DNA of 64,000 bases from positions 9,743-73,742 of the forward strand of contig JBLMWD010000027.1 of the NCBI GenBank assembly GCA_050257045.1. The letters are read 5' to 3'. Position 1 is the stretch's first letter; each line of letters opens with the position of its first letter. The position numbers and the translations under genes were made by a program. The notes under the pieces are model-generated. The model saw only the letters and a program-made list of their open reading frames with translations, was not told where the DNA came from and searched no databases. Below are positions 1 to 17,508 of the stretch, piece after piece. Source of the stretch: Bacteroidota bacterium (lineage in GTDB: Bacteria; Eisenbacteria; RBG-16-71-46; SZUA-252).

Positions 1-406
1 CGGCGCCGCCGGCGGCGAGGAGCCGGGAGGTGTGCTCCATCGCCCAGCCGATCCCGACGAAGCCGGTGAACAGGGAGCCTTCCATCGGCACGCGCCCCGC
101 CGCTTCGATCGCGGCGTCCAGGCATTCCCGGGCGAGCGCGGCTTCACCGGGCGCACCGCTTCGCGCGAGGTAGGCGTGCAGCACCGCCTGTCCCGCCGTT
201 CCCGACGCGAGGGACGCATCCACGGCGGCGCGCATGTCCGGAGCCGCGGCCTCCGGCGCCCATCCGGGAAGTGGATGCGCGAAACGGGCCGTGATTCCGC
301 GGAGGGCTTCTTCGGCGCGCGCGCGGAGGGCCGCGTCCGCGATGGGTCGCCACCCGGAAGGTGGCGCGGCCGGAGCCGAAAGAGAGGTGTCGCTCGCCGG
401 TTCCAT
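1..406 (-). CDS. Partial (5' part only; continues past the left edge) LanC-like lanthionine cyclase family protein
   Basis: Minus-strand frame starting at ATG ~406 translates as MEPASDTSLSAPAAPPSGWRPIADAALRARAEEALRGI...GTAGQAVLHAYLARS...SLFTGFVGIGWAMEH. The repeated G-x-x-G-(I/A) helical-repeat motifs (SLFTGFVGIGW) resemble the N-terminal repeats of LanC/LanC-like proteins. It is not in the ORF track because it runs off the edge. GC3 is moderately high. The call rests on motif resemblance only. Confidence 0.35.
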   Translation of the reverse strand, partial: MEPASDTSLSAPAAPPSGWRPIADAALRARAEEALRGITARFAHPLPGWAPEAAAPDMRAAVDASLASGTAGQAVLHAYLARSGAPGEAALARECLDAAIEAAGRVPMEGSLFTGFVGIGWAMEHTSRLLAAGGA

Positions 407-437
407 CGGCGAATGAGGGTAGCACGCGCGGAAGGAA

Positions 438-467
438 TTGACGCGGCCCGGGCGCTGCTCCTAGATT
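438..467 (+). promoter_or_regulatory. Putative sigma70-like promoter for the small peptide gene
   Basis: TTGACG (438-443), an ~18-nt spacer, then TAGATT (462-467). This sits ~85 nt upstream of the AGGAGG SD, in the divergent intergenic region between the LanC-like start and the peptide ORF. Confidence 0.3.
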
Positions 468-560
468 CCACCCCACGCCGCGTCGGCGCCGGCACCCCAC
501 GGCGCCGCATCGCGGCCCGCTCGCAGTCGGGGGTCGGGCTCGAACCAGGAGGAGAACGCC

Positions 561-695
561 GTGAAGACTCCGAAGAAGCTCGTCTTGGCGAAGGAAACGG
601 TGATGCGGCTCCAGTCCCCGGCCAAGAAGGAAGCCGGCCCGGGCGGCACGCATCCGACGTACACGGCGACCACGATCCAGACCGGCTGCTGCTGA
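561..695 (+). CDS. Small ORF (44 aa) missing from the track: candidate RiPP/lanthipeptide-type precursor peptide
   Basis: AGGAGG at 547-552, an 8-nt spacer, then GTG at 561. Translation: VKTPKKLVLAKETVMRLQSPAKKEAGPGGTHPTYTATTIQTGCC*. GC3 is ~90% (40/44 codons end in G/C), which indicates coding. The leader resembles the K-K-L-x-L-x-K-E-T-I-x-x-L class of GG-motif leaders common in FCB-group bacteriocin/RiPP precursors. The PGG is followed by a 15-aa Thr-rich core ending in Cys-Cys. A strong hairpin terminator follows directly. Confidence 0.55.
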   Translation: MKTPKKLVLAKETVMRLQSPAKKEAGPGGTHPTYTATTIQTGCC

Positions 696-708
696 TCGGG
701 AGGGGTCT

Positions 709-745
709 GGTTTTCGAGGCCTCGGGTGCTTCGATCACCCGGGGC
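709..745 (+). terminator. Intrinsic terminator after the small peptide ORF (it could also serve the convergent subtilase gene)
   Basis: GAGGCCTCGGGTG-cttcgat-CACCCGGGGCCTC forms a 13-bp stem (one G-U pair) with a 7-nt loop, followed by the T-rich GTCGTTTATTCC. Confidence 0.5.
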
Positions 746-753
746 CTCGTCGT

Positions 754-2661
754 TTATTCCAGAAGGACGACCCGGAGCGACGCCTCCCCGTCGCGCGTCC
801 GCGCGCGGGCGAAGTAGATCCCCGATCCGACCGGCACGCCCCGGTCGTCGGTGCCGTTCCAGCGGAGCGGGTGGACGCCGGGTCCTACCACGCCGTCCAC
901 CAGGCGCGCGACGCGGCGCCCGCGCACGTCGAACACCGAGACGTCGGCCGTGCCGCCGCGTGGGAGCGAGAGCTCGAGCGCCACGCGCCCGGGGCCCGGC
1001 ACGCGCGACAGCGGCCGGAACCGGAACGTCACGCCCGGAGCGTCGCCCACCCCGGTCAGCGTGTTCACCACGAGCTGGACCGAAACGCCGGTGCTCGGCG
1101 TGACCGGATCGTTGCTCGTGATCGGGAGCGTCGCGTTGTACGTCCCGTCCAGGAGCCCCGTGGCGTCGACATGCACTACGACCGCGGCGCCGGAGCCCGC
1201 CGCGACGTTCCCCGTGTCGGGCGACGCAGAGAGCCAGGCCGCGGGCGCGGGCGTCGGGAGCCGGAAGTCGAGCCGCCCCCGCCCGGTGTTGGACAGGGTG
1301 AGCGTCGTGTCGCGGATCCATCCCGGCGCGACGTAGACGGTGAACGCGGCCGGCGTGGGCGCGACCACGGGGACGTTCCAGAGCGCCTTGTAGGCGTTCA
1401 GCCGCCCGCCGGTCACCGTGATGCCGTTCATCGAGGCGATCGGGTCGACGTTGTCGAGAATGAGCTGGCGGACCACCGCGATCGAAGCGAGTGGGTAGTG
1501 GCCCATCGCGAGCGCCGCCGTTCCGGCGACGTGTGGGCAGGCCATCGAGGTCCCCGTCAGGAGCTGGTACTGGTTCCCCGGCTTGCAGGAGTAGATGTTC
1601 AACCCGGGGGCGCCTAAGTGCACGGTCACGAGCCCGTAGTTGGTGAGCGTGGGCCGGCCGTCGCGCCCATCCGTCGACGTGACGTTGATCATGTTCGGCG
1701 CGAGATAGGACGGCGGCCAGAACGGGACGCTGTCGATGTTCCAGCCGTTGTTCCCGGCGGCGAAGATCATGAGCTGCCCGGCCGCGCCCGCTGCGTTGAT
1801 CGCGTCGAGCATCGCCTGCCCGCCGGACATGTTCCCCCACGAGTTGTTCGTGAGCCGGCAGCCCACGAGGACCGAGTAGCCGATCGCGGAGATGGCGTCG
1901 GCCTCGGTCCCCACGCCCGAGGCGTTCATGAACTTGATCGCGACCATCCGGCACTGCCAGTTCACGCCGGTCACGCCGACGGTATTGTTCCCCACGGCTC
2001 CGATCGTCCCGGCGACGTGGGTGCCGTGATAGCCGTCGTCCATCGGATCGCCGTCGTGGTTCACGAAGTCGTAGCCATGCACGTCGTCGACGTAGCCGTT
2101 CTTGTCGTCGTCCTTGCCGTTCCCCGGTGTCTCCCCGGGATTGGTCCAGACGTTCGCGGCGAGATCGGGATGCGTGTAGTCGATGCCGGTGTCGATGACG
2201 CCGATCTTGAAGTTGGGATCGCCGGTGTAGAGGTCCCACGCCTGCGTCGCCTTGATGTCGCATCCGGCGTAGCCGCCCCCCTGGCCGGTGTTCAGCATCC
2301 CCCAGAGCTGGCTGAAGCTCGGGTCGTTGGGGACGACCTGCGCCTCCTGGGCGTAGACGTAGTGGTTCGGCTGGGCGTAGGCGACGTCCGGATCGCGCGT
2401 GAGGCGCGCGATCGCCTCCTCCGCGGACTGGCCGGAGACGCGGACGTGGTCGGCTCCGATCAAGTCGAGGCGGCCGACGCGCGTGAGGCCGGGGATCGCC
2501 GCCTCGATGGCCGCGCGGCGCGACTCGCTCACGCCGGGGCGGTACTTCACGATAAGCTCGCCCGGGACCGAGTCGGCGGCCGCGGCAACAGAAACGGAAG
2601 CGCTGATCGCCGCGAAGGCAGCGATCAGCGCGACGAGGAGACAAGTCCGGCGCGAGGTCAT
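754..2661 (-). CDS. Secreted subtilisin-like serine protease (peptidase S8) with a T9SS-type C-terminal sorting domain
   Basis: The track ORF 754..2952 is trimmed to the ATG at 2661 (MTSRRTCLLVALIAAFAAISASV is a signal peptide; GGAGG lies upstream). D/H/S motifs: VIDTGID, HGTHVAGTIGA, GTSMACPHVAG. The C-terminal ~80 aa (VSVFDVRGRRVARLVDGVVGPGVHPLRWNGTDDRGVPVGSGIYFARA...LRVVLLE) resemble the Por_Secre_tail / FlgD-Ig-like T9SS CTD. Confidence 0.85.
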   Translation of the reverse strand: MTSRRTCLLVALIAAFAAISASVSVAAAADSVPGELIVKYRPGVSESRRAAIEAAIPGLTRVGRLDLIGADHVRVSGQSAEEAIARLTRDPDVAYAQPNHYVYAQEAQVVPNDPSFSQLWGMLNTGQGGGYAGCDIKATQAWDLYTGDPNFKIGVIDTGIDYTHPDLAANVWTNPGETPGNGKDDDKNGYVDDVHGYDFVNHDGDPMDDGYHGTHVAGTIGAVGNNTVGVTGVNWQCRMVAIKFMNASGVGTEADAISAIGYSVLVGCRLTNNSWGNMSGGQAMLDAINAAGAAGQLMIFAAGNNGWNIDSVPFWPPSYLAPNMINVTSTDGRDGRPTLTNYGLVTVHLGAPGLNIYSCKPGNQYQLLTGTSMACPHVAGTAALAMGHYPLASIAVVRQLILDNVDPIASMNGITVTGGRLNAYKALWNVPVVAPTPAAFTVYVAPGWIRDTTLTLSNTGRGRLDFRLPTPAPAAWLSASPDTGNVAAGSGAAVVVHVDATGLLDGTYNATLPITSNDPVTPSTGVSVQLVVNTLTGVGDAPGVTFRFRPLSRVPGPGRVALELSLPRGGTADVSVFDVRGRRVARLVDGVVGPGVHPLRWNGTDDRGVPVGSGIYFARARTRDGEASLRVVLLE

Positions 2662-2678: not shown

Positions 2679-3179
2679 TTATGCGGGTTTGGAGAGGAGG
2701 AGCCGCCTCGTGTAGGGGATCAGCCCTCCCGCGTCGATGATCGCCTGGCGCGCCTTGGGAAGCGGCACCACGGGAAAGGAGGCTCCGGTCGTCTTGTTCA
2801 CGACCCCGCCGTCGCGGAAGGCGAGGATGTCGCCCTCCTTGGCCTCGAGGGTCGGGCAGATCACCATCCGGAGCCCGAGGTTGATCGCGTTCTGGAGGAA
2901 GATGCGCGCGAAGTTCCGCGCCACCACGGTGACATCGTAGCCCTTGAGGCACGAGGCCGCCTGTTCACGCGAGGAGCCGCAGCCGAAGTTCTTTCCCGCG
3001 ACGAGCACGCTCCCCGCGGGCACGTCGCCCGCGCGCAGCGCGCGATTGAAGGCGACGTCGTCGGCGAAGGCGTACTGCGGCGTCTCGCTGGGCAGCACCG
3101 TCGCCATGAAGCGGCCCGGATAGATGATGTCGGTCGACACGTCGTCGCCGACGGCCTTGACCACGCGTCCTTCGATCAT
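2679..3179 (-). CDS. leuD: 3-isopropylmalate/homoaconitate dehydratase small subunit (LeuD-type, short archaeal-like form)
   Basis: MIEGRVVKAVGDDVSTDIIYPGRF...; the start ATG overlaps the leuC stop (ATGA). 166 aa. Confidence 0.8.
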   Translation of the reverse strand: MIEGRVVKAVGDDVSTDIIYPGRFMATVLPSETPQYAFADDVAFNRALRAGDVPAGSVLVAGKNFGCGSSREQAASCLKGYDVTVVARNFARIFLQNAINLGLRMVICPTLEAKEGDILAFRDGGVVNKTTGASFPVVPLPKARQAIIDAGGLIPYTRRLLLSKPA

Positions 3180-4468
3180 GACCGGGCCTCCCTCGGATCG
3201 GTGATCACGCCGGCGATCGCGCTCGCCGCGGCCACCGCGGGCGAGCAGAGATAGACCTCGCCGGCCGGGTTCCCCATCCGGCCCTTGAAGTTCCGGTTCG
3301 TCGTCGAGAGGGCGACCTCGCCGTCGCCGAGGGCCCCCTGGTGCACGCCGAGACACGGGCCGCACCCCGGGTTGCAGACGACCGCGCCCGCCTCCATGAG
3401 ATCGCGGAGATAACCCCGGTCGAGCGCCTGGTGGAAGATGCGCCACGAGGCCGGGAAGACGAGCATCCGGGTCCCCGCCGCCACCTTCCGGCCGCGGAGC
3501 GTGCGCGCCGCGACCTCGAGGTCGTCGAGCCGTCCGTTCGTGCACGAGCCGATCACCACCTGCTGGATGCGGGTGCCTCTCACCGCGGCGACCGGTTTCA
3601 CGTTGTCGACGGTGTGCGGACAGGCGACCTGCGGCGCGAGCATGGCCGCGTCGATGTGGATCACCTGCTCGTAGGCGGCGTCGGGATCCGGCCCGAAGAT
3701 CTCGATCCGTTCCTTCACGCCGGCCTCCTCGCGGAGGTAGCGGAGCGTCTCGGCGTCCGGCGGCACCACGCCGGCCGTCGCGCCCGCCTCGACCGCCATG
3801 TTGCAGAGGACGAGCCGCCCCGACGTCGGCATGTTGCGGATGGCCGAGCCGTGGAACTCGAGGACCTTGAAGTTCGCCCCCTCGGCCGAGATCGTCCCGA
3901 TCAGGTGGAGGATCAGGTCCTTCGCGTAGACTCCGTCGGGGAGCACGCCGTTCACCACGACCTGGATCGTGCCCGGCGCCTCGACGTTCAGGATGCGGCC
4001 GAGCGCCCAGACCGAGGCCATCTCGGTCGCGCCGATGCCGAAGGCGAACGCACCCAGCGCCCCGTGCGTCGTGGTGTGGCTGTCGGTGCCGACGACGACG
4101 GCGCCCGGACGGACGTAGCCGTTCTCGGGAAGGATCTGATGGCAGATGCCGCCCACGTCGCCGCGCACGTCGTGGAACTTCACGATGCCGGCCGCCCCCA
4201 CGAATTCCCGCACCTTCTTCTGGTTGCTCGCCGTCTTCGCCGACTCCGCCGGAACGCGGTGGTCGAAGACGATCGCGATCTTGGAGGGATCCCAGACCCG
4301 GGCCTCGCGGCCGGTGTCGCGGAAGATCTCCTGGAACTGGTTCAGGACGAGCGCCGCGTTCTCGTGCGACATCGCGAGGTCGACCGGCGGCTCGACCACC
4401 TCGCCGACCGCGACTTCCCGCCGCCCGAGAGCGCGCGCGAGGAGCTTCTGCACGTAGGTCTGGCCCAT
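3176..4468 (-). CDS. leuC: 3-isopropylmalate dehydratase large subunit (aconitase family)
   Basis: MGQTYVQKLLARALGR...; Fe-S ligand motifs VIGSCTNGR and CNPGCGPCLG. The track ORF is trimmed to the ATG at 4468. Confidence 0.85.
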   Translation of the reverse strand: MGQTYVQKLLARALGRREVAVGEVVEPPVDLAMSHENAALVLNQFQEIFRDTGREARVWDPSKIAIVFDHRVPAESAKTASNQKKVREFVGAAGIVKFHDVRGDVGGICHQILPENGYVRPGAVVVGTDSHTTTHGALGAFAFGIGATEMASVWALGRILNVEAPGTIQVVVNGVLPDGVYAKDLILHLIGTISAEGANFKVLEFHGSAIRNMPTSGRLVLCNMAVEAGATAGVVPPDAETLRYLREEAGVKERIEIFGPDPDAAYEQVIHIDAAMLAPQVACPHTVDNVKPVAAVRGTRIQQVVIGSCTNGRLDDLEVAARTLRGRKVAAGTRMLVFPASWRIFHQALDRGYLRDLMEAGAVVCNPGCGPCLGVHQGALGDGEVALSTTNRNFKGRMGNPAGEVYLCSPAVAAASAIAGVITDPREARS

Positions 4469-4472
4469 GGCT

Positions 4473-5693
4473 CTACACGACTCCTTTCGCCCGGAGCGCG
4501 CACACGGCGTCGCCGTCCACGCCGACTTCGGCCAGCACCTCGGCCGTGTGCGCCGAGAGGCGCGGCGGCGGGCCCGTGATCGCACCCGGGGTCTTTTCGA
4601 ACTTGGCGGTGAGGTCGAAGAGCGGGACCGTCCCGATCCCCTCGACCGGCACGTCCTTCAGCGTCTCGCGGTGGCGGATCTGGGCTTGCCGGAGGGCGTC
4701 GCCGAGCGCGAGGATCGCGCCGGTCGGCACGTCGCGCGCGTTCAGCCGCTCCACCCAGACCGCCGTGGGACATTGCGTGAGGCGCTCCTCGAGGATCGGC
4801 GTGAGCTCCTTCCGGTTCTTCTTCCGGACGTCCCGCTTCTGGAACCGCGGATCGGCCTTCAGGTCCGCGAGCCCGAGCTCCTCGCAAAGCGCCTCCCACT
4901 GCTCCTGCTTGTTCGCGGCGATGTTGACGTAGCCGTCCCGCGTCCGGAACGTCCCCGAGGGGGCGGCGGTGAAGTTGTCGTTCCCCATGAGGACCGGCTG
5001 CTGGCCGCCGATCAGGAGATTCGCCGCCACCCAGCCCATGAGCGGCATGATCGAGTCGAGCATCGCGACGTCGATGAACTGCCCCTCGCCGGTGCGCTCG
5101 CGGTGATAGAGCGCGGCGAGGATGGCGAAGGCGGCGTTCAGCCCCCCAACCGTGTCGCAGACCGGGAAACCGGCGCGGAGCGGGTTCAGGCGCTCGTCGC
5201 CGTTCACGGCCATGACCCCCGAGAGGCCCTGGATGATCTGGTCGTAGGCGGGCTTCAGCGCGTCGGGTCCGGTGTGGCCGAAGCCCGAGATCGCGCAGTA
5301 GATGAGCCGCGGGTTGTCGGCCGCGAGCGTCGCGTAGCCGAGGCCCATCCGTTCCATCACGTCGGGGCGGAAGTTCTCGACCAGGACGTCGGACTTGGCG
5401 GCGAGCTTCCGGAAGATCTCCTTCCCCTCGGGCGTCTTCATGTTGAGGGTGACGGAGCGCTTGTTCGCATTCTGCGCGAGGAACGAGGTCCCCATGAGCT
5501 GCTCGTTCAGCTCCGGAACGATCCCGAGCTTGCGGGCGAGGTCGCCGTCCTTGGGGTTCTCGATCTTCACCACGTCCGCCCCGAGGAGGGCGAGGTGGAG
5601 GGTGGCGAAGGGTCCGGCGAGGACGTTGGTGAGGTCGAGGACGCGGATCCCCTGGAGCAGGGTGCGCGCGCCGGAGATCTCCGGTTGGCTCAC
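4473..5693 (-). CDS. Family III CoA-transferase (CaiB/BaiF family)
   Basis: RTLLQGIRVLDLTNVLAGPFAT...FRPDVMERMGLGY... The only in-frame start is GTG ~5693, overlapping the upstream gene stop (GTGA). ~406 aa. Confidence 0.75.
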   Translation of the reverse strand: MSQPEISGARTLLQGIRVLDLTNVLAGPFATLHLALLGADVVKIENPKDGDLARKLGIVPELNEQLMGTSFLAQNANKRSVTLNMKTPEGKEIFRKLAAKSDVLVENFRPDVMERMGLGYATLAADNPRLIYCAISGFGHTGPDALKPAYDQIIQGLSGVMAVNGDERLNPLRAGFPVCDTVGGLNAAFAILAALYHRERTGEGQFIDVAMLDSIMPLMGWVAANLLIGGQQPVLMGNDNFTAAPSGTFRTRDGYVNIAANKQEQWEALCEELGLADLKADPRFQKRDVRKKNRKELTPILEERLTQCPTAVWVERLNARDVPTGAILALGDALRQAQIRHRETLKDVPVEGIGTVPLFDLTAKFEKTPGAITGPPPRLSAHTAEVLAEVGVDGDAVCALRAKGVV

Positions 5694-6601
5694 GCCGGCA
5701 CTTTCGTGGGAAGCGGCCCCGTCTTGTGGACGAACCCCGGCAGGTCGCGGCCGAAGTGCGCGGACACCTCGCGGGCCACCTCGATCAGCCGCTCGAGATC
5801 CACGTCCGGGCGCTTCCCCTCGAGATGGAGGGCATGAACGAAGTCCTCGGTCGCGACGTTCCCGGCCGCCACCTTCGTGAAGGGGCAGCCGCCGAGCCCG
5901 CCGAACGACGTCTCGAAGGAGGTGACCCCGGCGCGCATGGCGGCGTAGATGTTCGCCATCCCCATGCCGTAGGTGTTGTGGAAGTGGCAGGTGGCCTCGA
6001 TCGTGGGGTCGATGGCGAAGACGGCGTTGAAGAGCCGCTCCACCTGTCCGGGACGGCCGTGCCCCGCCGTGTCGGCGAGGCTGATCGAGCGGAACCCCGC
6101 GCCGACGTACGCGCGGACCATGTCGAGCACCCGGTCCTCGGGGATCGCCCCCTCGAAGCCGCAGCCGAACGCCGACTGCACCGAGAGCTGCACCTTCCGG
6201 CCCGCCTCGACGGCGCGCTTCGCCGTGGCGATGATCCGCGTCACCGCCTCCTCGCTCCCCATGCCGGTGTTGGCGAGGCTGTGCGTCTCGCTCGCCGAAG
6301 CGCCCATGCAGAAGAGCTCGACGCCGCAAGCGAGCCCTCGATCGAGCCCCTTCTCGTTCAGCACGAGGCCCGAGAGGACGACTCCCGGCGCCTTCCCCTC
6401 GGTGAGGCGCCGGAAGAGTTTGTCGGTGTCGGCCATCTGCGGAACCTTGTCCGGGTGGACGAAGGAGCCCACCTGCACGATGTCCACGCCCGAGGCCATC
6501 ACGTTGCGGATCCAGGCCTCTTTCTTCGCCGTCGAGACGATCTGCTTCTCCATCTGGAGTCCGTCGCGCGGCCCGACCTCGTGCAGGACGATGCGGTTCA
6601 T
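5690..6601 (-). CDS. HMG-CoA lyase family protein (hydroxymethylglutaryl-CoA lyase or citramalyl-CoA lyase-like)
   Basis: MNRIVLHEVGPRDGLQMEKQIVSTAKKE...VPQMAD...GLGGCPF...GNVATEDFV closely parallels the HMGCL signatures EVGPRDGLQNEK / VPQMGD / GLGGCPY..GNLATEDLV. The RDGLQ motif (not the RDGEQ of LeuA/CimA) indicates an acyl-CoA lyase rather than a synthase. Confidence 0.8.
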   Translation of the reverse strand: MNRIVLHEVGPRDGLQMEKQIVSTAKKEAWIRNVMASGVDIVQVGSFVHPDKVPQMADTDKLFRRLTEGKAPGVVLSGLVLNEKGLDRGLACGVELFCMGASASETHSLANTGMGSEEAVTRIIATAKRAVEAGRKVQLSVQSAFGCGFEGAIPEDRVLDMVRAYVGAGFRSISLADTAGHGRPGQVERLFNAVFAIDPTIEATCHFHNTYGMGMANIYAAMRAGVTSFETSFGGLGGCPFTKVAAGNVATEDFVHALHLEGKRPDVDLERLIEVAREVSAHFGRDLPGFVHKTGPLPTKVPA

Positions 6602-6612
6602 GGCGGAGCCCT

Positions 6613-7779
6613 CTACGTTCGCGTCACACCCGCGCCGCGGGTGATGGATGGAGAGGCGGCGCGACACGTTTCCCCGACGGCGCGCGCCATGTCGAGCGTA
6701 CCGGCCGCCCCTCCCATGTCGTAGGTCCGGACCTTCCCTTCCTTCACGACGGACGCGACCGCCGCCTCGATGGCGTCAGCCTTCGCGCCCTCGCCGAGCC
6801 AGTCGAGCATCATCCTGGCGGCGAGGATCGTCGCGATCGGGTTGGCCTTGTACTTCCCCGCGTGCTTCGGCGCCGACCCGTGCGTCGGCTCGAAGACCGC
6901 GACGGTGCCGCCGATGTTGCCGGAGCAGCCGAAGCCGAGGCCGCCGACCATCTGCGCGCAGAGATCCGAGATGATGTCGCCGTACAGGTTGGGTGCCACG
7001 ATCACGTCGTAGTTGAAGGGATTCTTGAGCAGCCACATCGTCATCGCGTCGATGTTCGCGTCGTCCATCGCGATGCCGGGATACTCCGCCGCGACGCGGC
7101 GGGCCTCCTCGAGGAAGAGCCCGTCGGTGGCGCGGACGACGTTTGCCTTGTGGACGACGGTGACCTTCTTCCGGCCGAACTTCTTCGCGAACTCGAACGC
7201 GGCGCGGACGATCCGCTCCGACCCGTGCTTCGTGTTCACCTTGCAGGAGATCGCGTATTCGTCCCCCTTCAGGCCGGCAAACGCCTTGAAGGGCGGTGAA
7301 AGCGCCGTGAGCGTGTCGCGCAGGGCGTCGGGGACTTTCGGGAACTCGACGCCGGCGTAGAGGTCCTCCGTGTTCTCGCGGAAGACGACGAGATCGATCC
7401 CTTCCTTGAAGTTGAGGGGATTCCCGGGGAACGCCTTGCAGGGGCGGAGGCAGACGTAGAGATCGAAGAGCTGCCGCATGCGGACGATCGGGGAACGGTA
7501 GACGAGGCTCTTCCCCTGGAGCTCGGGAACGAGCTCCCGCTCCGCTTCCTTGAGCGGCTTCGACGTGATCGCGCCGAACAGCGCGGCGTCCACGTTCCGG
7601 AGGAGCTCGATGGTGCGCGGAGGCAACGCGTCCCCCTCGCGGCGCCAGAACTCCCAGCCGATGTCGCCGGGAACGTATTCCGCGTCGAATCCGACGGCGT
7701 CGAGGACGAGGCGGGCAGCCTCCATCACCTCGACCCCGATCCCATCTCCCGGCAGCCAGCCGATCTTGTATCGTGCCAT
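6613..7779 (-). CDS. icd: Isocitrate/isopropylmalate dehydrogenase family protein, closest to prokaryotic NADP-isocitrate dehydrogenase (Icd type)
   Basis: MARYKIGWLPGDGIGVEV...DLYVCLRPCKAFPGNP...VVFRENTEDLYAGVEF...HKANVVRATDGLF...NLYGDIISDL...GNIG parallels E. coli Icd (DLYICLRP..., IFRENSEDIYAGIEW, HKGNIMKFTEGAF). 388 aa. It could alternatively be a homoisocitrate or 3-IPM dehydrogenase. Confidence 0.65.
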   Translation of the reverse strand: MARYKIGWLPGDGIGVEVMEAARLVLDAVGFDAEYVPGDIGWEFWRREGDALPPRTIELLRNVDAALFGAITSKPLKEAERELVPELQGKSLVYRSPIVRMRQLFDLYVCLRPCKAFPGNPLNFKEGIDLVVFRENTEDLYAGVEFPKVPDALRDTLTALSPPFKAFAGLKGDEYAISCKVNTKHGSERIVRAAFEFAKKFGRKKVTVVHKANVVRATDGLFLEEARRVAAEYPGIAMDDANIDAMTMWLLKNPFNYDVIVAPNLYGDIISDLCAQMVGGLGFGCSGNIGGTVAVFEPTHGSAPKHAGKYKANPIATILAARMMLDWLGEGAKADAIEAAVASVVKEGKVRTYDMGGAAGTLDMARAVGETCRAASPSITRGAGVTRT

Positions 7780-7873
7780 GCCGATTGCCCTCCCCGGCCA
7801 CTGCCGATCGTAAGGCCCGGGCACGGCCGGGGTCGCCCCCTACCGAGGGCTACTTACCGGGTGGCCCGAGGGA

Positions 7874-8401
7874 TCATCCTCCTGCGGAAACGGTCTCGGC
7901 CGGCCGCGGCGCCTCCTTCGGCGCCTCCACCGTGCGCGGAACGCCTCCGGCCAGCGTGCAGACGAAGCGCATGATCTTGTGGCCCGGGTCGGCGGTCGGA
8001 TCGAACATGCAGGGGCACCCCCCGGCGATCACGGTGATCCCCCGCTCGCGGCCGTAGGCCGCGGCCTCCTTCGAGACGCTCCCCGCCCCCATCGAGCGGT
8101 GCATCCAGACCTCCCGCACCCCGAGATCGGCGCATTCCTTCATCGCGGTCATGGCGGTCTCGGGCCGGGTGCCGATCACCACGGCCTCGACGCCCCCCGG
8201 AATCGACTTGAGATCGGGATAGGCGCGGTCGCCCGCGACTTTCTCGGCGTTCGGGTTGACGGCGAAAACCTGGTAGCCCCGCTCGCGCAGCCGCTGGTAG
8301 ACGGCGTTGGCCGCGTGGGGCTGGGGATTCCTCGAAACGCCGGTCACGGCGATGCGCTTGTGAGCCAGAAACTTCGCGGCGGCTTCTCGAATCGTGCTCA
8401 T
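7874..8401 (-). CDS. CoA-binding domain protein (YccU-like)
   Basis: HKRIAVTGVSRNPQPHAANAVYQRLRERGYQVFAVNPN...; Rossmann-like CoA-binding fold signature. Confidence 0.7.
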   Translation of the reverse strand: MSTIREAAAKFLAHKRIAVTGVSRNPQPHAANAVYQRLRERGYQVFAVNPNAEKVAGDRAYPDLKSIPGGVEAVVIGTRPETAMTAMKECADLGVREVWMHRSMGAGSVSKEAAAYGRERGITVIAGGCPCMFDPTADPGHKIMRFVCTLAGGVPRTVEAPKEAPRPAETVSAGG

Positions 8402-8438
8402 GGCAGCTCTCCTGTGCGCCCGCGGGCGCCCACGACGG

Positions 8439-9002
8439 TCAGGGCTCCGGCGCGCTCGCGACGGACCATGCCCCGGTGGCCTGGTTCAGCTTGTGGCAGT
8501 AGGTGCACTCGCCCTGGAACTCGGTCATGTAGTGGTTCTCGTCGGCGCCGACGAGGTGGATCCGGTGGATCAGGCGCGCGAAGGGAGGCGCCTTCTTCGA
8601 GGCGGCGCCGTGGCACTTGACGCATCCCGCCGGGACGTCCTTGAGCGCGGCGCTCACGGCCGGATGCTTCCCCTTGAGCGTCACGGCGGCGGGCGCAGCG
8701 GCCTGGGCCTTTGCGAGAAGTGCCGGGTCGACCTTCACGGTCCAGCCCTTCATGAGGGTCGAGAGCCGCTGGTCCATGTGCCGCTCGGGAAGATTCACGT
8801 GGCAGCTCACGCATCCGTTCGGGAACTCGTCGGGGGCGTTGATGCCGGGGATCTTCCGCGCGGGCGGGAGCGGCGGCGGCGAGCCGGGGCTAGGCGTGGC
8901 CACCACCGATTTCGCGGTGCTGTCGGCCGGCTGGGCGTGAGCGCTGGAGGCGAAGGCGAGAAGTCCGAGAAGGAAGATGGACACGGTGGCGAGTGGGCGC
9001 AT
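8439..9002 (-). CDS. Secreted triheme c-type cytochrome
   Basis: Signal peptide MRPLATVSIFLLGLLAFASSAHA. Three CxxCH motifs: CVSCH, CVKCH, CTYCH. A GGAGGG RBS precedes the ATG. Confidence 0.75.
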   Translation of the reverse strand: MRPLATVSIFLLGLLAFASSAHAQPADSTAKSVVATPSPGSPPPLPPARKIPGINAPDEFPNGCVSCHVNLPERHMDQRLSTLMKGWTVKVDPALLAKAQAAAPAAVTLKGKHPAVSAALKDVPAGCVKCHGAASKKAPPFARLIHRIHLVGADENHYMTEFQGECTYCHKLNQATGAWSVASAPEP

Positions 9003-9075
9003 GGCCGTCCCTCCTCTGGGGGATGGAGCTTCAGGAGGACGTCACGCTAGCAGGGGACGGAAGCGGCCCGAATGG

Positions 9076-9085
9076 TACCTAGGTA
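9076..9085. promoter_or_regulatory. Perfect 10-bp palindrome TACCTAGGTA in the cytochrome c upstream region: candidate operator
   Basis: An AT-rich perfect palindrome in a 70%-GC genome, ~75 nt upstream of the cytochrome c start. It sits next to a GC hairpin (9095-9113, CCGGCGGC-gaa-GCCGCCGG) immediately after the ABC-2 permease stop. Confidence 0.25.
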
Positions 9086-9117
9086 TACCCGCCGCCGGCG
9101 GCGAAGCCGCCGGGGCG

Positions 9118-10251
9118 TCACAAAGTGCGCTTGAAGAGCGTCGAGGCGAGCACGAGCATCACGCCCGCGAAGAGCATGAGGATCAGGAAGTCGGGGAGCA
9201 CGGCCTGGAAGCCGACCCCCTTCAGGAGGAGGTTCCGGAGGGCGTGGACGGCATAGCGCATCGGGTTCACCCGGGAGATCGCCTGGAGCCACGCCGGGTA
9301 GCTCTCCGTCGGATAGAGCGCGCCGCTCGGGAAGAAGGTGACGACGTTCAGGATGCCGAAGAGGGCGCGCGGCGTCATCGGATTGGAGACGCGCGCCATG
9401 AGCGTGAACATGAACAGGACGAGCCCGAGGCCGAGGAGGAGGATCGTGAACTCCACCATGAGGAGCGTCGGGAGCCCGCCGATGAGCGGGAGCTGCGCGA
9501 TCACGATCGAAGAAAGGGTGACGACCGTGCCCATGGAGAGGGCGAGCGTCGTGGCCGAGAGCGTGAGCCCCGCCACCAGGTCGAGCGAGGTGAGGGGCGT
9601 CACGAAGTACCCCTCGTGGATCCCGCGCGCGCGGTCGTCCACGAGGATGATCCCGCCCGCCACCATCGCGACGAAGAAGAGGGCGAGCGCGATCACCCCG
9701 GGCACGAGATACTGCATGTAGTTCTTGTGACCGTAGACGTCGACCCGCTCGACCGTGATCCCGACGTCGGGGCGCTCGACCATTCCCGCCACGCGGAGGT
9801 CGCCGATCGCGCGGCGCATCTCCCCCTCGACCGTGTTCGACGAGGTGGCGTCGGTGTTGTCGAGCGCGAGCCCCAGCTCCGCCTTCTCCCCGCGCGCGAA
9901 GTCCTCGCTGAAATTGGGCGGGACGATCACGACGGCCCGGTATTCCCCCTGACGGAGGCGGTTCACCGCCTCGCCCGCCTCGGGCTCGTCCCGGAGATCG
10001 AAGAGCTGCCGGGTCGTCTCGAGGGTCATGATCTGCCTCCGGACCGCGGCGGCGGCCGCGCCCTCGTCCTCGACGACGAGCGCGACGGGAAGGTGGTGGA
10101 GATCCCCGCCCATCGACTTCCCGAGGATGAGGAGGTAGATGATCGGCATCATCACCATCGGGATCACGAGCTGGATGTTGCGTCGGAAGCGGCGGAGGTC
10201 GCGCTCGGCGACCGCGAGGACGCGGCTCGTGCTGAAGGGAAGCGAGAACAC
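9118..10251 (-). CDS. ABC-2 type transporter permease
   Basis: Six predicted TM helices with ABC-2 family architecture, directly downstream of an ABC ATPase. Confidence 0.8.
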   Translation of the reverse strand: MFSLPFSTSRVLAVAERDLRRFRRNIQLVIPMVMMPIIYLLILGKSMGGDLHHLPVALVVEDEGAAAAAVRRQIMTLETTRQLFDLRDEPEAGEAVNRLRQGEYRAVVIVPPNFSEDFARGEKAELGLALDNTDATSSNTVEGEMRRAIGDLRVAGMVERPDVGITVERVDVYGHKNYMQYLVPGVIALALFFVAMVAGGIILVDDRARGIHEGYFVTPLTSLDLVAGLTLSATTLALSMGTVVTLSSIVIAQLPLIGGLPTLLMVEFTILLLGLGLVLFMFTLMARVSNPMTPRALFGILNVVTFFPSGALYPTESYPAWLQAISRVNPMRYAVHALRNLLLKGVGFQAVLPDFLILMLFAGVMLVLASTLFKRTL

Positions 10252-10257
10252 CGCGGG

Positions 10258-11277
10258 CTACCTCATGATCGACGGGAGGGGGCGCACGTATTCGGTGGAC
10301 ACGGTGTCGCGCAGGCCCCGCCCGGTGTAGTGGATGAAGACGTCGTCGAGCGTCGGCTCCTGCACCGAGACGCTCTTCACCTTGTTGCCGACCTTGCGCG
10401 TCGCCTCGATGATCGCCTCGAGCGGCACCACCTCCGACGTGAGCACGAGCCGCACGGCGTGATCGCTGTCGATCGCCGCGTCCGAGACGTCGGGGAGCGC
10501 CTTGAGCGCGTCGCGAAGCGGCTCCCCCACTTCGCGGAAGAATTCGGCGAGCACCGCGTCCTGCCCCGGCACCGAAGCCTTGAGCTCCTTGGGGGTCCCG
10601 AGCGCGGCGATCTTCCCGTGGTCGATGATCGCGAGGCGGTCGCAGAGGCGGTCGGCTTCGTCCATGTAGTGCGTGCAGATCAGGATCGACAGATTCCCCT
10701 CGGCTCGGAGCTTTTCGAGCAGCTCCCAGATCACGCGCCGGCTCTGCGGGTCGAGTCCGGTGGTCGGCTCGTCGAGGAAGAAGACGCGGGGCCGGTGGAC
10801 CAGGCCGCGTGCGATCTCGAGCCGCCGCCGCATCCCGCCCGAGTAGGTCCCGGCGGCCTGGTCCTTCCACTCCCAGAGACCCACGGCGTGGAGGAGCTCG
10901 GTCGAGCGCTCCCGCCGCTCGTGCCGCGACATGCCGTAGAACTTTCCGTAGATGTCGAGGCTCTCCCACGCGGAGAGGTCGGAGTCGACGGTGTTCGCCT
11001 GCGGGATCACGCCGATCGAGCGCCGGACCGAACCCGTGCGCCGCGCCACGTCGAACCCCATGACGAGCGCGCGTCCCGAGGTCGGGCGGATCAAGGTCGT
11101 GAGCATGCGCACGAGGGTGCTCTTCCCCGCCCCGTTCGGGCCGAGGATCCCGAAGATCTCGTTCTGCGCCACGCTGAAGGTGAGGTCGTCGTCGGCCGTG
11201 AAATCGCCGAACTTCTTGGTGAGGTGCTCGACGACGATCGCGGGGACGTCCGGATTCTCGGGTTCGGGCGCGATCAC
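10258..11277 (-). CDS. ABC transporter ATP-binding protein
   Basis: Walker A GPNGAGKST, signature YSGGMRRRLEIA, Walker B VFFLDEPTTGLD. Confidence 0.85.
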   Translation of the reverse strand: MIAPEPENPDVPAIVVEHLTKKFGDFTADDDLTFSVAQNEIFGILGPNGAGKSTLVRMLTTLIRPTSGRALVMGFDVARRTGSVRRSIGVIPQANTVDSDLSAWESLDIYGKFYGMSRHERRERSTELLHAVGLWEWKDQAAGTYSGGMRRRLEIARGLVHRPRVFFLDEPTTGLDPQSRRVIWELLEKLRAEGNLSILICTHYMDEADRLCDRLAIIDHGKIAALGTPKELKASVPGQDAVLAEFFREVGEPLRDALKALPDVSDAAIDSDHAVRLVLTSEVVPLEAIIEATRKVGNKVKSVSVQEPTLDDVFIHYTGRGLRDTVSTEYVRPLPSIMR

Positions 11278-12221
11278 GGCGTCCGCTCCGCCACGGGGCG
11301 CGACGAGGCGGGGGACGCGGAGGGGACCTCGATCGTGACCTCGGCCGTCATGCCGTCCTTGAGGAGCCCGTCCGGGTTCGGGACGCGCGCCACGACGTCG
11401 AACGTCCGGATGTCGCGCCGCTGGGCGCCCCAGTCCTTCCGCGTCGCGAAGTCCCCCGAGGCCGAGACGTCGGTCACGACTCCCGGGAAGGTGCGCTTGT
11501 CGAACGTGTAGACCTTGACCGAGACCGGATCGCCGAGGCGCACGGCGCCGATCCGCGTCTCGTCCACGGCGGCGTGCACCTTCAACGTGTCGAGGTTCGC
11601 GATCGTGACGACCGCCGTCCCCACGGTGACCGTCTCGCCCGGGTGGTGGATCTTCTCCGTGACCTGGCCCGCCTGCGGCGCGGTGACGACGGCATAGGAG
11701 CGCGTGAGCTTCGCCTGGGCGAGGCTGCTCTCGGCCTGGTGGACCTGCGCCTCGGCCGCGTCGACCTGCGCCCGGCCGACCTGCGCCGCCGCGATCGAGG
11801 CGTCGAGCTGCTGCTGCGTGCCGGCGCCCTCGGCCGCGAGGGAGCGCATGCGCGCGAGGTCGCGGGCCGCCTTCTCGCGGTTCGCGCGCGCCTGGCCCAG
11901 CGCGGCGCGGGCCGATTCGAGGGCCGCCGCGGCGCTCTGCACCGCCACGTCGAAGTCCTGCGGGTCGAGCGTCGCCACGGCCTGCCCCGGGCGGACGCGG
12001 TCTCCCTCGTTCACCGGGACGGTCGCGATCTTCCCGCCCACCTTGAAGCCGAGGCTCACCTGCACGGCCTCGATGGTCCCGGTCGTGACCACGTTCCCGC
12101 CCTGATACCCCTCCTTGCGGTGGGTGTAGCTCCAGATCGCGTAGGCGGCCGCGGCGATCACGACCAGGAGGACGATCCCCCGGATCCGCCGGGCGCGCGA
12201 TGGAGGCGCTTTCTCGGCCAT
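11274..12221 (-). CDS. HlyD-family membrane fusion (periplasmic adaptor) protein
   Basis: N-terminal TM helix, coiled-coil region and beta-barrel/lipoyl-like motifs; its start overlaps the ABC ATPase. Confidence 0.8.
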   Translation of the reverse strand: MAEKAPPSRARRIRGIVLLVVIAAAAYAIWSYTHRKEGYQGGNVVTTGTIEAVQVSLGFKVGGKIATVPVNEGDRVRPGQAVATLDPQDFDVAVQSAAAALESARAALGQARANREKAARDLARMRSLAAEGAGTQQQLDASIAAAQVGRAQVDAAEAQVHQAESSLAQAKLTRSYAVVTAPQAGQVTEKIHHPGETVTVGTAVVTIANLDTLKVHAAVDETRIGAVRLGDPVSVKVYTFDKRTFPGVVTDVSASGDFATRKDWGAQRRDIRTFDVVARVPNPDGLLKDGMTAEVTIEVPSASPASSRPVAERTP

Positions 12222-12225
12222 GTCG

Positions 12226-13566
12226 TTACGGTCCCCCCGTGCTGGTGGCCGGTCCGATCGCGCGCTCGAGCGCGGCGCGCGCGGACCAGGTGTCGAGGAG
12301 CGACTGCGCCTCCTGCGCCCGCGCGTCGGCGAGCGCGCTCTCCGCGTCGCGCACCTGCGAGGCGGTGGTCGTGCCGCCGCGGTAGCCGGCCTCGGCCAGG
12401 TGGAGCGCCTCGCGCGCCGCGGTCACGCGCGAGGAGTCCGTCTGCCAGATCGCGAGCGAGACGCGGAGATCGGAGAGCGAGCTGTCGACGTTGCGGCGCA
12501 CGTCGAGCTCCGCCTCGCGCCGCCGAGCCGCGATCGCCTCGTGGTCGGCGCGCAGCTCGCCCGCGCGGGCGGAGGCGAGGCCGCCGTCGAAGATCGGCCA
12601 GCTGACATCGACGCCGGCCCAGAGGTTGTAGGTCTTGAGGCCGGGGTCCTGAAAGTTGAAGTATTCCTCTTGGCGATTCGGGCCGAGGTATTGTGCCGTG
12701 CCGCTCACGCCGAGGGCGGGCCCTCGCTGCGCGAGGGCAGCACGCGTCCGCTGCTCGTTCTCGCGGAGCTGCTCGTCGTAGCTGCGGAGCTCCGGGCGGT
12801 TCCGGAGGGCGGCCGCCTCCGCGGCGGCCGGATCGGGAATGGCCGAATCGGGCGGACCCGGCGGGGCGAGCGCTTCCGTGGAGTCGATGGTCGCGCCGAT
12901 CACGGTTTCGAGCTCCACGCGCGCCGTGCGGACCGCTTCGTGGGCCCGGATCAGGGCCGACTCGCGCTGGAAGAGATCGACGCGCGCCTGGAGCGAGTCG
13001 AGCCGCTGCGCCACGCCGGCGCGCACCTGGGCCGCCGCGAGGCGCCGGCGGGCCCCGGCCGCCTGCACCGCCTCCCCGGCGGCGTCCTCGAGCCGGCGCG
13101 CCGCGATCGCGCGGTAGAAGGCCTGGGAGACGCGCAGGGCGAGATCGGCGTCGGCCTCCGCGCGGCTCTCTTGCTGGGCGCGGCGGGCGGCTTCGGCGGC
13201 CCGCACGAGCGCCCGGTCGCGTCCGCTCGCGTCGATCGGGAGCCGCGCCTGGGCGCGCATGTCGATGTTCGTCGCGCTCCCCGTCTTCACGACCGCGGGA
13301 CCGGGCGCGCCCGGGATCGGGATGATGAACTTCTGCGACTCGCTCCGCTGGATCGCGCTCCCGTCGAGCCGGAACGTCGGCGCGAGCGCGGCGCGCGCCT
13401 CGCGGATCGCCTGCTCCGCGCGCGAGACGCCCGCCTCGGAGATCCGGATCGAGGGGGCGTTCTTGCGCGCGATGGCGAGGCACTCCTCGAGCGTGAGGGC
13501 GCGAGCGGTCGCCGAGGCCACTGCCACGGCCGCCGTGAGCGCGAGCAGGAAGGCGACCCGCCTCAC
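12226..13566 (-). CDS. TolC-family outer membrane efflux protein
   Basis: Signal peptide, two tandem repeats of the OEP coiled-coil/beta region, and the typical LTLEECLAIA start. Confidence 0.8.
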   Translation of the reverse strand: MRRVAFLLALTAAVAVASATARALTLEECLAIARKNAPSIRISEAGVSRAEQAIREARAALAPTFRLDGSAIQRSESQKFIIPIPGAPGPAVVKTGSATNIDMRAQARLPIDASGRDRALVRAAEAARRAQQESRAEADADLALRVSQAFYRAIAARRLEDAAGEAVQAAGARRRLAAAQVRAGVAQRLDSLQARVDLFQRESALIRAHEAVRTARVELETVIGATIDSTEALAPPGPPDSAIPDPAAAEAAALRNRPELRSYDEQLRENEQRTRAALAQRGPALGVSGTAQYLGPNRQEEYFNFQDPGLKTYNLWAGVDVSWPIFDGGLASARAGELRADHEAIAARRREAELDVRRNVDSSLSDLRVSLAIWQTDSSRVTAAREALHLAEAGYRGGTTTASQVRDAESALADARAQEAQSLLDTWSARAALERAIGPATSTGGP

Positions 13567-14249
13567 GCCGCCTCCTCCGGGAGGTAGAGGTTCACGATCG
13601 CCTCCGCGCGCGCCTTCGGATCCTGGGGGAGCGGCTCGATCCGGATCACGGCGCCGGTCATCTGGTAGAACATGAGCGAGCCGTGGAACGATCGCGCCGC
13701 GATGGCGGCGTCCCGCGCCGCGCGCCGCGCGCCCCGTTCGGCAAAGGCGCGCTGGAAGAGGCGCGTCTCGAGCGCGAGCAGGCGCGAGAGGAACGTCCGG
13801 TAGAACTCCCCCGCCAGGTCGGGCACCTCGAGGACGCCGAAAAACACGACGCGGAAGAGGCGCGGGTCGTCGCGCAGCGCCGTAAGGATGCGCTCGGCGA
13901 GCCGGCCGAGCGCCTCGCGCGGGGGGAGCTTCGCAAAGCCGCGCTCCATCGTCTCGATCCGGTCCTCGAATCCGACCGACGCGAGGATCGCCCGGACGAG
14001 GTCCTCCTTCGTCGGGAAGTGCCGGAAGAGGAGCGCTTCGCTCACGCAGGCCCGCTCCGCGACGTCGCGCGTGCGCGCCCCGTGGAAGCCCCGCTCCGCG
14101 AAGACGTCGAGCGCCGCCGCGAGGATCTGCGAGCGGCGGTCGTCCGCCTTCAGTCGAAGCCTGGGGTTGAAGTCCGATGCGCCCACGGTTCCTTTCGATG
14201 CGCCGCCGCCGCGGGCGGCGCGGATAAGTGAGCGCTTACTTAATCGCAT
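13563..14249 (-). CDS. TetR-family transcriptional regulator (likely controls the downstream efflux operon)
   Basis: HTH region RRSQILAAALDVFAERGFHGARTRDVAERACVSEALLFRHF. The track ORF is trimmed to the ATG at ~14249. Its stop overlaps the tolC start. Confidence 0.75.
   Translation of the reverse strand: MRLSKRSLIRAARGGGASKGTVGASDFNPRLRLKADDRRSQILAAALDVFAERGFHGARTRDVAERACVSEALLFRHFPTKEDLVRAILASVGFEDRIETMERGFAKLPPREALGRLAERILTALRDDPRLFRVVFFGVLEVPDLAGEFYRTFLSRLLALETRLFQRAFAERGARRAARDAAIAARSFHGSLMFYQMTGAVIRIEPLPQDPKARAEAIVNLYLPEEAA
14226..14241. promoter_or_regulatory. Near-palindromic 16-mer AAGTGAGCGCTTACTT overlapping the first codons of tetR: candidate TetR autoregulatory operator
   Basis: 14/16 positions are palindromic. 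The overlapping tetR codons (CGA TTA AGT AAG CGC TCA CTT ATC) use codons that are rare in this genome, which suggests a constraint at the DNA level. A second perfect palindrome, AACGATCGTT (~14337-14346), lies just upstream of the osmC RBS. Confidence 0.3.
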
Positions 14250-14366
14250 GCCGAGCCGGGTGGCAAGCCCCGATGTCGAGCGGTACCATTTCCCGCCCGG
14301 CCCGGCCGGACCTGACGACAATGAGCGGAAACGACGTTCCGAAACGATCGTTGCAAGGAGGTCACG

Positions 14367-14792
14367 ATGAACCGCAAGGCATCCGCGGAGTGGCGCGGCG
14401 GACTCAAGGACGGCAAGGGAACGATGTCGACGGAGAGCGGGCTCCTCGCGAACGCCCCCTACTCCTTCGGCACCCGCTTCGAAAGCGCCAAGGGAACGAA
14501 CCCCGAGGAGCTGATCGCGGCGGCGCACGCGGGGTGCTTCTCGATGGCGCTCTCGGCCCAGCTCGAGGGCGCGGGGATCAAGCCCGAGAGCGTGCGCACG
14601 TCGGCCACGGTCACGCTCGAGAAGGTGGGCGACGGATTCTCGGTCACGGCGAGCCACCTCGACGTGGTCGCGCGCATCCCGGGCGCCGACCGCGCGGCGT
14701 TCCAGAAGGCGGCGGAGCAGGCCAAGTCGGGCTGCCCCATCTCGAAGCTCCTGAACGCGAAGATCTCGATGGACGCGAAGCTGGAGGGCTGA
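14367..14792 (+). CDS. osmC: OsmC/Ohr family peroxiredoxin
   Basis: ...AAHAGCFSMALSAQLE...AEQAKSGCPISKLL...; contains the two conserved Cys. AAGGAGG RBS 6 nt upstream. Confidence 0.85.
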   Translation: MNRKASAEWRGGLKDGKGTMSTESGLLANAPYSFGTRFESAKGTNPEELIAAAHAGCFSMALSAQLEGAGIKPESVRTSATVTLEKVGDGFSVTASHLDVVARIPGADRAAFQKAAEQAKSGCPISKLLNAKISMDAKLEG

Positions 14793-14829
14793 CGTCCGGC
14801 GCCTCCCCGGACGCGGGGGCGGCCGCGGG

Positions 14830-16982: not shown

Positions 16983-16996
16983 CGTCGTGGCCTCGA

Positions 16997-17314
16997 TCAG
17001 GTGCGGATCACGAAGTCGCGCGCGCCCTGCGCCGATATCCAGCGCACCGACACGTCGCTCACGCGCGCGGCGGGGGGACCGTGGTGGAGCTCTTCGAGGT
17101 AGGCCCGGAGCGCCTCGTCCGGCCCCTCGGCCTCGACCTCGACGCCGCCCGAGGGAAGGTTCCGTACCGAGCCGCCGAGCCCGTGCACGCGCGCCCGCTC
17201 CTGGGCGAAGAAACGGTATCCGACGCCCTGCACGCGCCCGGCGACCACCGCGACGAAACGCGCGCGGCCGGCGCGCGGGCGGGGCGAAGCGCCGTCCGGA
17301 TCACGCGACGTCAC
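16997..17314 (-). CDS. acyP: Acylphosphatase
   Basis: RARFVAVVAGRVQGVGYRFFAQERARVHGLGGSVRNLPSGGVEVEAEG... is the canonical acylphosphatase fold signature. The start is trimmed to the GTG at ~17314 because the upstream part of the track ORF overlaps tRNA-Pro. Confidence 0.6.
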   Translation of the reverse strand: MTSRDPDGASPRPRAGRARFVAVVAGRVQGVGYRFFAQERARVHGLGGSVRNLPSGGVEVEAEGPDEALRAYLEELHHGPPAARVSDVSVRWISAQGARDFVIRT

Positions 17315-17346
17315 GCGCGCCCCCGTGAAGTCCTCCGGCAAAAAAA

Positions 17347-17420
17347 TCGGGGCGAGAGGATTTGAACCTCCGACCCCCTGGTCCCGAACCAGGTGCTCTA
17401 CCAGGCTGAGCCACGCCCCG
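17347..17420 (-). tRNA. tRNA-Pro (anticodon CGG)
   Basis: CGGGGCGTGGCTCAGCCTGGTAGAGCACCTGGTTCGGGACCAGGGGGTCGGAGGTTCAAATCCTCTCGCCCCGA folds as a cloverleaf with anticodon loop TTCGGGA. No encoded CCA; a T6 run follows. Confidence 0.85.
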
Positions 17421-17508
17421 ATCGAATCGAGCCGAAATGAGGACACAAAGGAGCCTCCGGTGGAGGGAACCTTTGCGCCGGGAGTCTATCAACGCGCGCG
17501 GCATGGGG

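Follow-up and report, generated by a model that had tools for sequence, protein, structure and literature searches.

We analyzed a stretch of 64,000 nucleotides from contig JBLMWD010000027.1 (assembly GCA_050257045.1; positions 9,743 to 73,742 of the forward strand), hereafter the window, which has a G+C content of ~71% throughout. Three features lie close together at its left end: the first 135 codons of a lanC gene running off the left edge (2..406, minus strand), a small open reading frame (ORF) of 44 aa (561..695, plus strand), and a gene for a putatively secreted subtilase of family S8 (754..2661, minus strand). An initial annotation of this DNA had proposed that the small ORF is an unannotated precursor of a lanthipeptide-type RiPP (a peptide made on ribosomes and modified after translation). 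This central proposal is supported by the conservation of the peptide, by the adjacent LanC and by the LanB found in orthologous contigs, and we refer to the ORF as lanA below.

The ORF starts with GTG and encodes MKTPKKLVLAKETVMRLQSPAKKEAGPGGTHPTYTATTIQTGCC. A Shine-Dalgarno sequence, AGGAGG, can be read at 547..552 (plus strand), 8 nt before the GTG at 561. Upstream, a putative sigma-70-like promoter (TTGACG-18-TAGATT; 438..467, plus strand) is the sole promoter-like match within 3 kb (shuffle mean of 0.1). The G+C content at the three codon positions of 561..695 is 0.52, 0.55 and 0.91, respectively; the third-position value fits that of the credible genes of the window (0.85-0.96), and the two alternative frames across the same interval present values of 0.50 and 0.57. 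The ORF, its start, its third-position G+C content (given as ~90%) and its promoter had all been claimed by the initial annotation and were found as described. Between lanA and the convergent S8 gene, a terminator-like hairpin of 14 pairs (11 G-C) was identified at 715..749 (plus strand), with TCGTTTATTC after it. The 71-nt stretch around this hairpin folds at -33.5 kcal/mol (z = -2.6), and the hairpin ends 4 nt ahead of the S8 stop codon (754-756). The stem of the terminator proposed earlier is therefore present, with 14 pairs instead of 13, but its T-tract is weak.

The predicted leader covers residues 1-29 (561..647, plus strand) and carries the motif L7-x-L9-x-K11-E-T-V-x-x-L17. It would be followed, from a putative boundary at residue 29/30, by the core THPTYTATTIQTGCC, which is encoded with the stop codon at 648..695 (plus strand). 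This core contains six Thr and ends in Cys-Cys, as had been noted before. The locus thus presents a short precursor with a leader and a Ser/Thr/Cys core (six Thr and two Cys) beside modification enzymes.

We searched protein databases with the 44-aa peptide and recovered three homologue clusters, P0001 (98% identity), P0002 (86%) and P0003 (75%, 40 aa), all of them already called as genes by other pipelines. Their members are located on eight short soil-metagenome contigs (L002-L009), and the order LanC gene (leftward), peptide (rightward) and S8 gene (leftward) is kept in these contigs wherever they are long enough. In the DNA alignment of these contigs with the window (nine close loci), 29 of the 30 promoter positions (438-467) are invariant, AGGAGG is invariant in 9/9 loci, and both the core-coding part and the hairpin at 715-749 are conserved. 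The start codon of L006-L009 is an ATG located three codons further in than the GTG of the window. Within the leader motif (K5-Q18), the DNA differences among the nine loci are silent (GTC/GTG, TTG/CTG, GCG/GCC, ACG/ACA and AAG/AAA), with the exception of A10S in L002. Simple counts of synonymous and non-synonymous codons are distorted by indels of the DNA alignment, and codon counts were used for the leader motif only.

More divergent loci were also identified. The LanCs of L011 and L012 share 46-53% identity with that of the window clade, and a divergent small ORF is still present in both loci, encoding MKQDSGKLVLSLETLMRLQAPPDAEANRGGTHPTTTVNTIHTGCC and MNQQAPKLVLSVETLMRLQPPAEAREPGRPPHTHPTTTATTIQTGCC, respectively, with the shared core THPTTT[AV][TN]TI[QH]TGCC. 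When the intergenic DNA was aligned with these two loci, the ORF formed the single long conserved stretch, and the surrounding non-coding DNA yielded only short matches; the hairpin was not alignable. In a third locus, L076, the peptide is 73% identical to that of the window and the N-terminus of LanC 56% identical. A gene for LanC adjoins the ORF in every locus whose contig reaches that far, and the divergent arrangement of lanA and lanC, which had been described for the window, is kept in L011, in L012 and, where the contigs are long enough, in L002-L009. The initial annotation had named conservation in syntenic regions of relatives as a check, and the ORF is indeed conserved there with the same synteny. 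Because homologues with 75-98% identity are called as genes elsewhere and the peptide is kept in far more diverged loci, the ORF is a real gene and more than a chance reading frame.

A profile search against 1.84 billion representative proteins (E <= 0.001) returned 10 clusters, and all 10 end in [TS]GCC. In an alignment of 16 sequences, L9, E12, T13, L17, P32, T33, T35, T38, C43 and C44 are invariant and G42 is nearly so. The strongest conservation is found in the Thr/Cys-rich C-terminal 15 residues, with the core consensus x-[HQ]-P-T-x-T-x-x-T-x-x-[TS]-G-C-C and the leader motif L-x-L-x-x-E-T-[LVI]-x-x-L. Three representative proteins homologous to the precursor, P0009, P0011 and P0014, present long N-terminal extensions as called (85, 68 and 91 aa, respectively) with an internal Met just before the conserved leader, which suggests that their starts were mis-called.

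The upstream DNA raises the question of whether the intergenic element instead has a regulatory role, acting on neighboring genes as a leader RNA or a short ORF: 468-539 is nearly invariant among the nine close loci, 468-547 is invariant there at 50 of 80 positions, and the ORF has few codons. We consider this very improbable: the 5' untranslated region cannot be aligned with L011 or L012, whereas the ORF is kept there at the protein level, conservation peaks in the Thr/Cys-rich last 15 residues, and the ORF lies beside lanC in every sufficiently long contig. In addition, a curated model of lanthipeptide leaders is the only NCBIfam family that the leader matches (see below). A structured RNA in the 5' untranslated region was tried as a candidate and rejected, as this region presents no Rfam match (E <= 1), a fold z of -0.35 and no conservation in L011 or L012. 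The segment 468-547 also has to hold the divergent lanCB promoter. Two further observations were made in this region. First, 468-539 holds a repeated motif, CACCCCACG(C/G)CGC. Second, L006-L009 carry a 22-23-nt insertion (alignment columns 51-73, between positions 449 and 450 of the window) that duplicates GGAAGGAATTGACGCGG and results in two tandem -35-like TTGACG boxes upstream of lanA.

We then considered the gene at the left edge, which contains SLFTGFVGIGWAMEH and which the initial annotation had described as LanC-like. Its 135-aa fragment is 76-86% identical to the N-termini of its orthologues in L003-L007. The full-length orthologue of L006 (466 aa) matches PF05147 at 101 bits over the whole profile and keeps the motifs AHGVPG, WCYGD and CHGAAG, which, as known from NisC, hold the catalytic His and the Cys-Cys-His zinc ligands. 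These motifs are thus found in orthologues; in the window, the left edge cuts the gene off before its C-terminal part. Within the fragment, all five LanC sequences compared share G115, F116, G118, W121 and H125. A word-indexed protein search with the fragment gave no match at E <= 0.001, and a scan of genome contigs found only one relative, a 38%-identical LanC of Archangium lansingense. Based on these similarities, the left-edge ORF is the N-terminus of a class I LanC cyclase, in line with the earlier description.

A dehydratase had also been predicted beyond the left edge, and this holds in the orthologous loci. In L006 and L007, a gene with a Lant_dehydr_N domain (243 and 47 bits, respectively) overlaps the lanC stop codon by 4 nt, and both copies are cut by the contig end. 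In L011, where LanC is ~50% identical, both domains were found in a LanB of 1074 aa, Lant_dehydr_N at 504 bits and Lant_dehydr_C at 204 bits; here, lanA lies at 9789..9652, lanC at 9965-11320 and lanB at 11317-14538. Among database proteins, the L006 fragment is closest to the LanB of L075, which is split into two ORFs. In that locus, the 671-aa Lant_dehydr_N and 394-aa Lant_dehydr_C ORFs occupy 10001-13269, a precursor of the GG type is found at 13518-13700 and a divergent LanC gene at 8687-9919. Over the whole 64-kb window, we found no second precursor, no lanB and no further lanC.

On this evidence, ORF 561..695 is very probably lanA, the gene of a class I lanthipeptide precursor. It would have a promoter and a terminator to itself and be divergent from an operon of lanC and lanB. 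Several observations weigh against this assignment. The left-edge fragment scores 18.6 bits against PF05147 (profile positions 3-72), below the cut-off of 23.2 bits, a shortfall explained by the presence of only the first 135 residues of LanC. The peptide itself remains below the curated cut-off of its best leader model, NF038153 (16.5 against 22 bits). The LanB gene lies outside the window. Look-ups of identical sequences with the S8 protein and with the 44-aa peptide gave no match, and the left flank is known from orthologous contigs alone. Finally, we could assign no exporter, immunity gene or dedicated protease to the cluster.

The leader was compared with known families. NF038153 (lant_leader_L1a, a class I lanthipeptide leader) is the sole NCBIfam match of the window peptide (E = 0.007); the match covers positions 2-23 of the 32 profile positions and leaves the GG end unmatched. 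The peptides of P0002, P0003 and L010 score 16.6, 16.0 and 17.2 bits, respectively, each matching the N-terminal part of the profile only. A comparison with leader models had been suggested earlier: it yielded this NF038153 hit, although below threshold, and no hit to TIGR04149 at E <= 1. No curated model of Pfam or NCBIfam covers the peptide family above threshold. The motif LxLxKx5L has been described for class I LanAs of Bacteroidetes (Walker et al. 2020, PMC7268733), many of which have leaders ending in GG; genes for a C39 protease are frequent in their clusters (PMC7268733). The window peptide presents this motif (L7, L9, K11 and L17), so the leader motif L-x-L-x-K-E-T-V-x-x-L reported by the initial annotation matches a published one. 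Across the 16-member subfamily, K11 is not conserved, whereas L9, E12, T13 and L17 are.

Related leaders were found by scanning the 65 loci that LanC had retrieved for the motif K-L-x-L-x-[KR]-E-T-[VIL]-x-x-L. In 21 of the 65, as well as in the Archangium locus (L001), small ORFs with this motif lie beside LanC/LanB, and most of these peptides have a leader ending in GG. Precursors beside related LanCs pass NF038153 at 22.5-31.9 bits. Scores of 28.6-31.9 bits were obtained in two among six tested loci and in one in L075; L001 (27.1 bits) and L070 (22.5 bits) also pass, and L019 (14.6 bits) fails. In the window subfamily, a variable linker rich in Pro, Ala and Lys takes the place of the second leader half, GG end included. 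A GG precedes the core in just 4 of the 16 members, and the GG cleavage site was accordingly rejected as a feature of the family. The GG-type leader end proposed by the initial annotation is thus not conserved. C39-ABC transporter genes occur in the GG-type relatives L029, L059 and L063. In the flanks of L011, no C39 peptidase or transporter was seen near the lanA subfamily: two ABC exporters lie ~6 kb from lanA and both lack a C39 domain. The window subfamily is a divergent branch of the class I LanA family with LxLxK leaders.

How the leader might be removed brings in the S8 gene (754..2661, minus strand). Its product presents a putative signal peptide, with the hydrophobic N-terminus MTSRRTCLLVALIAAFAAISASVSVAAAA seen in the translation, a fervidolysin-type prodomain, the S8 domain (PF00082, 162 bits), an Ig-like domain and a FlgD-Ig-like C-terminus. 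This gene converges on lanA, with a common hairpin region, is adjacent in 8/8 close-clade contigs and encodes a putative signal peptide and prodomain as in secreted LanP enzymes. Moreover, some other protease would be needed because no C39 peptidase was seen near the subfamily. Together, these features could indicate that the precursor is served by a dedicated LanP, cutting after the GG at residues 28-29. We nevertheless regard such a dedicated role as unlikely. By tblastn, the S8 gene is present in L002-L009 only and in none of the other 67 loci (L011 with 10-kb flanks included); it is also absent from the available sequence of L012 and L076, so that its co-occurrence with lanA and lanBC does not extend beyond the close clade. 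Other genes lie beyond lanA in these loci: a GNAT acetyltransferase gene in L011, a glycosyltransferase gene in L076 and a large regulator gene, TPR-type by eye from the translation, in L012. Between the window and L006, identity is 92% for S8, 76% for LanC and 75-78% for the peptide; S8 is thus more conserved than LanC and the peptide, which fits a housekeeping neighbor. The best solved relative is deseasin MCP-01 (299 bits), followed by SUB1-type and thermitase-type subtilases, and none of the 60 best S8-like solved chains listed is labeled a lanthipeptide protease. The best NCBIfam matches are the mycosin and dentilisin models, far below their cut-offs. Finally, the GG on which the cut would depend is found in few members of the family, as seen above.

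The dedicated LanP was therefore rejected as a candidate, and S8 is probably a neighbor and not a dedicated part of the cluster. The initial annotation was correct about the domain and location of this convergent, putatively secreted protease, but its proposed use as a leader peptidase is not supported. According to a passage of PMC8960859, many lanthipeptide clusters depend on unclustered proteases, and a general secreted protease may trim the lanA leader.

For the class I lanthipeptide precursor that we favor, a pathway can be proposed by analogy with NisB- and NisC-type enzymes, whose mechanism is established. The leader motif L-x-L-x-(K)-E-T-[VLI]-x-x-L would dock the peptide on LanB. LanB would then glutamylate Thr residues of the 15-residue core T-H-P-T-Y-T-A-T-T-I-Q-T-G-C-C from glutamyl-tRNA(Glu) and eliminate the glutamate to yield dehydrobutyrines (Dhb). 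The zinc-dependent LanC would add Cys14 and Cys15 to two of these, forming two C-terminal methyllanthionine rings, with the invariant core Thr9 and Thr/Ser12 as the likeliest acceptors, and the other dehydrated Thr would stay as Dhb. The leader would finally be cut off by a non-C39 protease, for which the adjacent S8 would at best be an opportunistic candidate. Our observations extend to the gene signals, a conserved peptide, a gene identified as lanC and a lanB gene in orthologous contigs; the chemical steps, ring pattern, cleavage site, export route and activity of the product are predictions.

It is also conceivable that the peptide is a substrate of LanB and LanC whose product is not a plain two-ring lanthipeptide. 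It could, for instance, have its C-terminus turned into aminovinyl-cysteine by a decarboxylase from another locus, or bind a metal through a free thiol or His. Two adjacent Cys, invariant and placed at the very end of the peptide, are an unusual feature, core position 2 is His or Gln, and pinensins, the only lanthipeptides isolated from the phylum in which the LxLxKx5L motif was described (PMC7268733), bind Zn(II) with nanomolar affinity (PMC13532221). This outcome seems quite unlikely, given that Pfam scans of 10 genes from the 10-kb flanks of L011 showed no flavoprotein decarboxylase or other tailoring enzyme, that His2 is replaced by Gln in several members, and that LanC always occurs with its zinc-ligand motifs intact, an argument for the cysteines being used in thioether rings.

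Compared with known systems, the plain two-ring lanthipeptide reading places the peptide closest to the LxLxKx5L class I LanAs, with which it shares the motif, NF038153 as its only match, the LanC neighbor and, in orthologous contigs, the LanB neighbor. In contrast to them, the window subfamily has a variable linker without a conserved GG or motif Lys, and lacks the nearby C39 transporter present in L029, L059 and L063. These LanAs were described in Bacteroidetes, from which pinensin is the only lanthipeptide isolated (PMC7268733), whereas the source of the window is a soil organism with 71% G+C. This G+C content and the FlgD-Ig-like C-terminal domain of S8 would tentatively fit the FCB group or Gemmatimonadota, a placement that is a guess. 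Similarly to nisin-type systems (NisA/B/C/P/T), the family presents a LanB with glutamylation and elimination domains, full length in L011, a separate LanC and a leader-bearing precursor. Unlike these systems, its leader has no FxLD box, and its core has only two Cys, both C-terminal, and lacks SxxxCTP(G/S)C, the lipid II-binding motif listed for class I precursors (PMC7268733). None of the genes LanT, LanFEG and LanRK is assignable, and S8 is not demonstrably equivalent to NisP. The radical-SAM RiPP leaders of TIGR04149 (GG_sam_targ_CFB) have a related leader type, K-L-x-L-x-K-E-T-I-x-x-L, and several related LanA sequences score 17.6-29.2 bits against this model. As mentioned above, the window peptide gave no match to it, and its neighbors are LanC and, in orthologous contigs, LanB, not a radical-SAM enzyme. 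A search of the available literature for the core-sequence strings that we tried found no paper.

Considering all these observations jointly, we lean toward the view that the locus belongs to an uncharacterised class I lanthipeptide family of uncultured high-G+C soil bacteria. The 15-residue core of this family would be almost frozen, with a leader linker and enzymes diverged to ~50% identity, and its cluster would be minimal, consisting of lanA and lanCB. Its LxLxK-type leader would have lost the GG/C39 module, so that maturation would need either a general secreted protease or one with its gene elsewhere. The product may have a poly-dehydrobutyrine tail above two methyllanthionine rings that interlock at the C-terminal end. 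If this view is correct, both the scaffold of the product and its target are not yet described. So strongly conserved a core suggests that the product has a specific molecular target, which makes the peptide a reasonable candidate for heterologous production. The gene is a conserved one that ORF calling overlooked and is worth annotating, and the family extends the class I lanthipeptide precursors by at least ten clusters (at 50% identity) missed by NF038153. The putative loss of GG/C39 within the LxLxK-leader lineage would be a small but useful data point on the evolution of leader removal. The cluster type is already known and should not surprise specialists; genome mining already lists ~8,500 lanthipeptide precursors (PMC7268733).

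To the right of S8, the genes belong to primary metabolism and are not RiPP-related, which sets the right boundary of the RiPP locus. The leftward run at 2679-8485 (minus strand) encodes the small and large subunits of an aconitase-family enzyme, a family III CoA-transferase, an HMGL-like lyase, an isocitrate/isopropylmalate dehydrogenase and a CoA-binding protein, and looks like an organic-acid or leucine-type catabolic operon. Further right, in the region 9118-12422 (~8.5 kb right of lanA), lie genes for an ABC-2-type membrane protein (9121-10257, minus strand) and an HlyD-type membrane-fusion protein (11277-12422, minus strand). LanFEG immunity transporters are of the ABC-2 type. These genes were not linked to lanA because six primary-metabolism genes lie between them, and the transporter that had been expected in the cluster could not be assigned.

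Among the related clusters, six loci (L013, L015, L016, L044, L045 and L058) present two or three different LxLxKET-type precursors in tandem per LanC/LanB pair. In the Archangium lansingense locus (NZ_JAPNKA010000001.1), a lanC-lanA-lanB cluster occupies 10001-14951. Its precursor (11388-11546), the one that passes NF038153 at 27.1 bits, is (M)DEKKTKKLELHKETVRLLADRQLAAVAGGYRYQTQNITCDTGSSTCAKQCCFEVAG, and an IS66 transposase gene is located nearby at 16382-18055.

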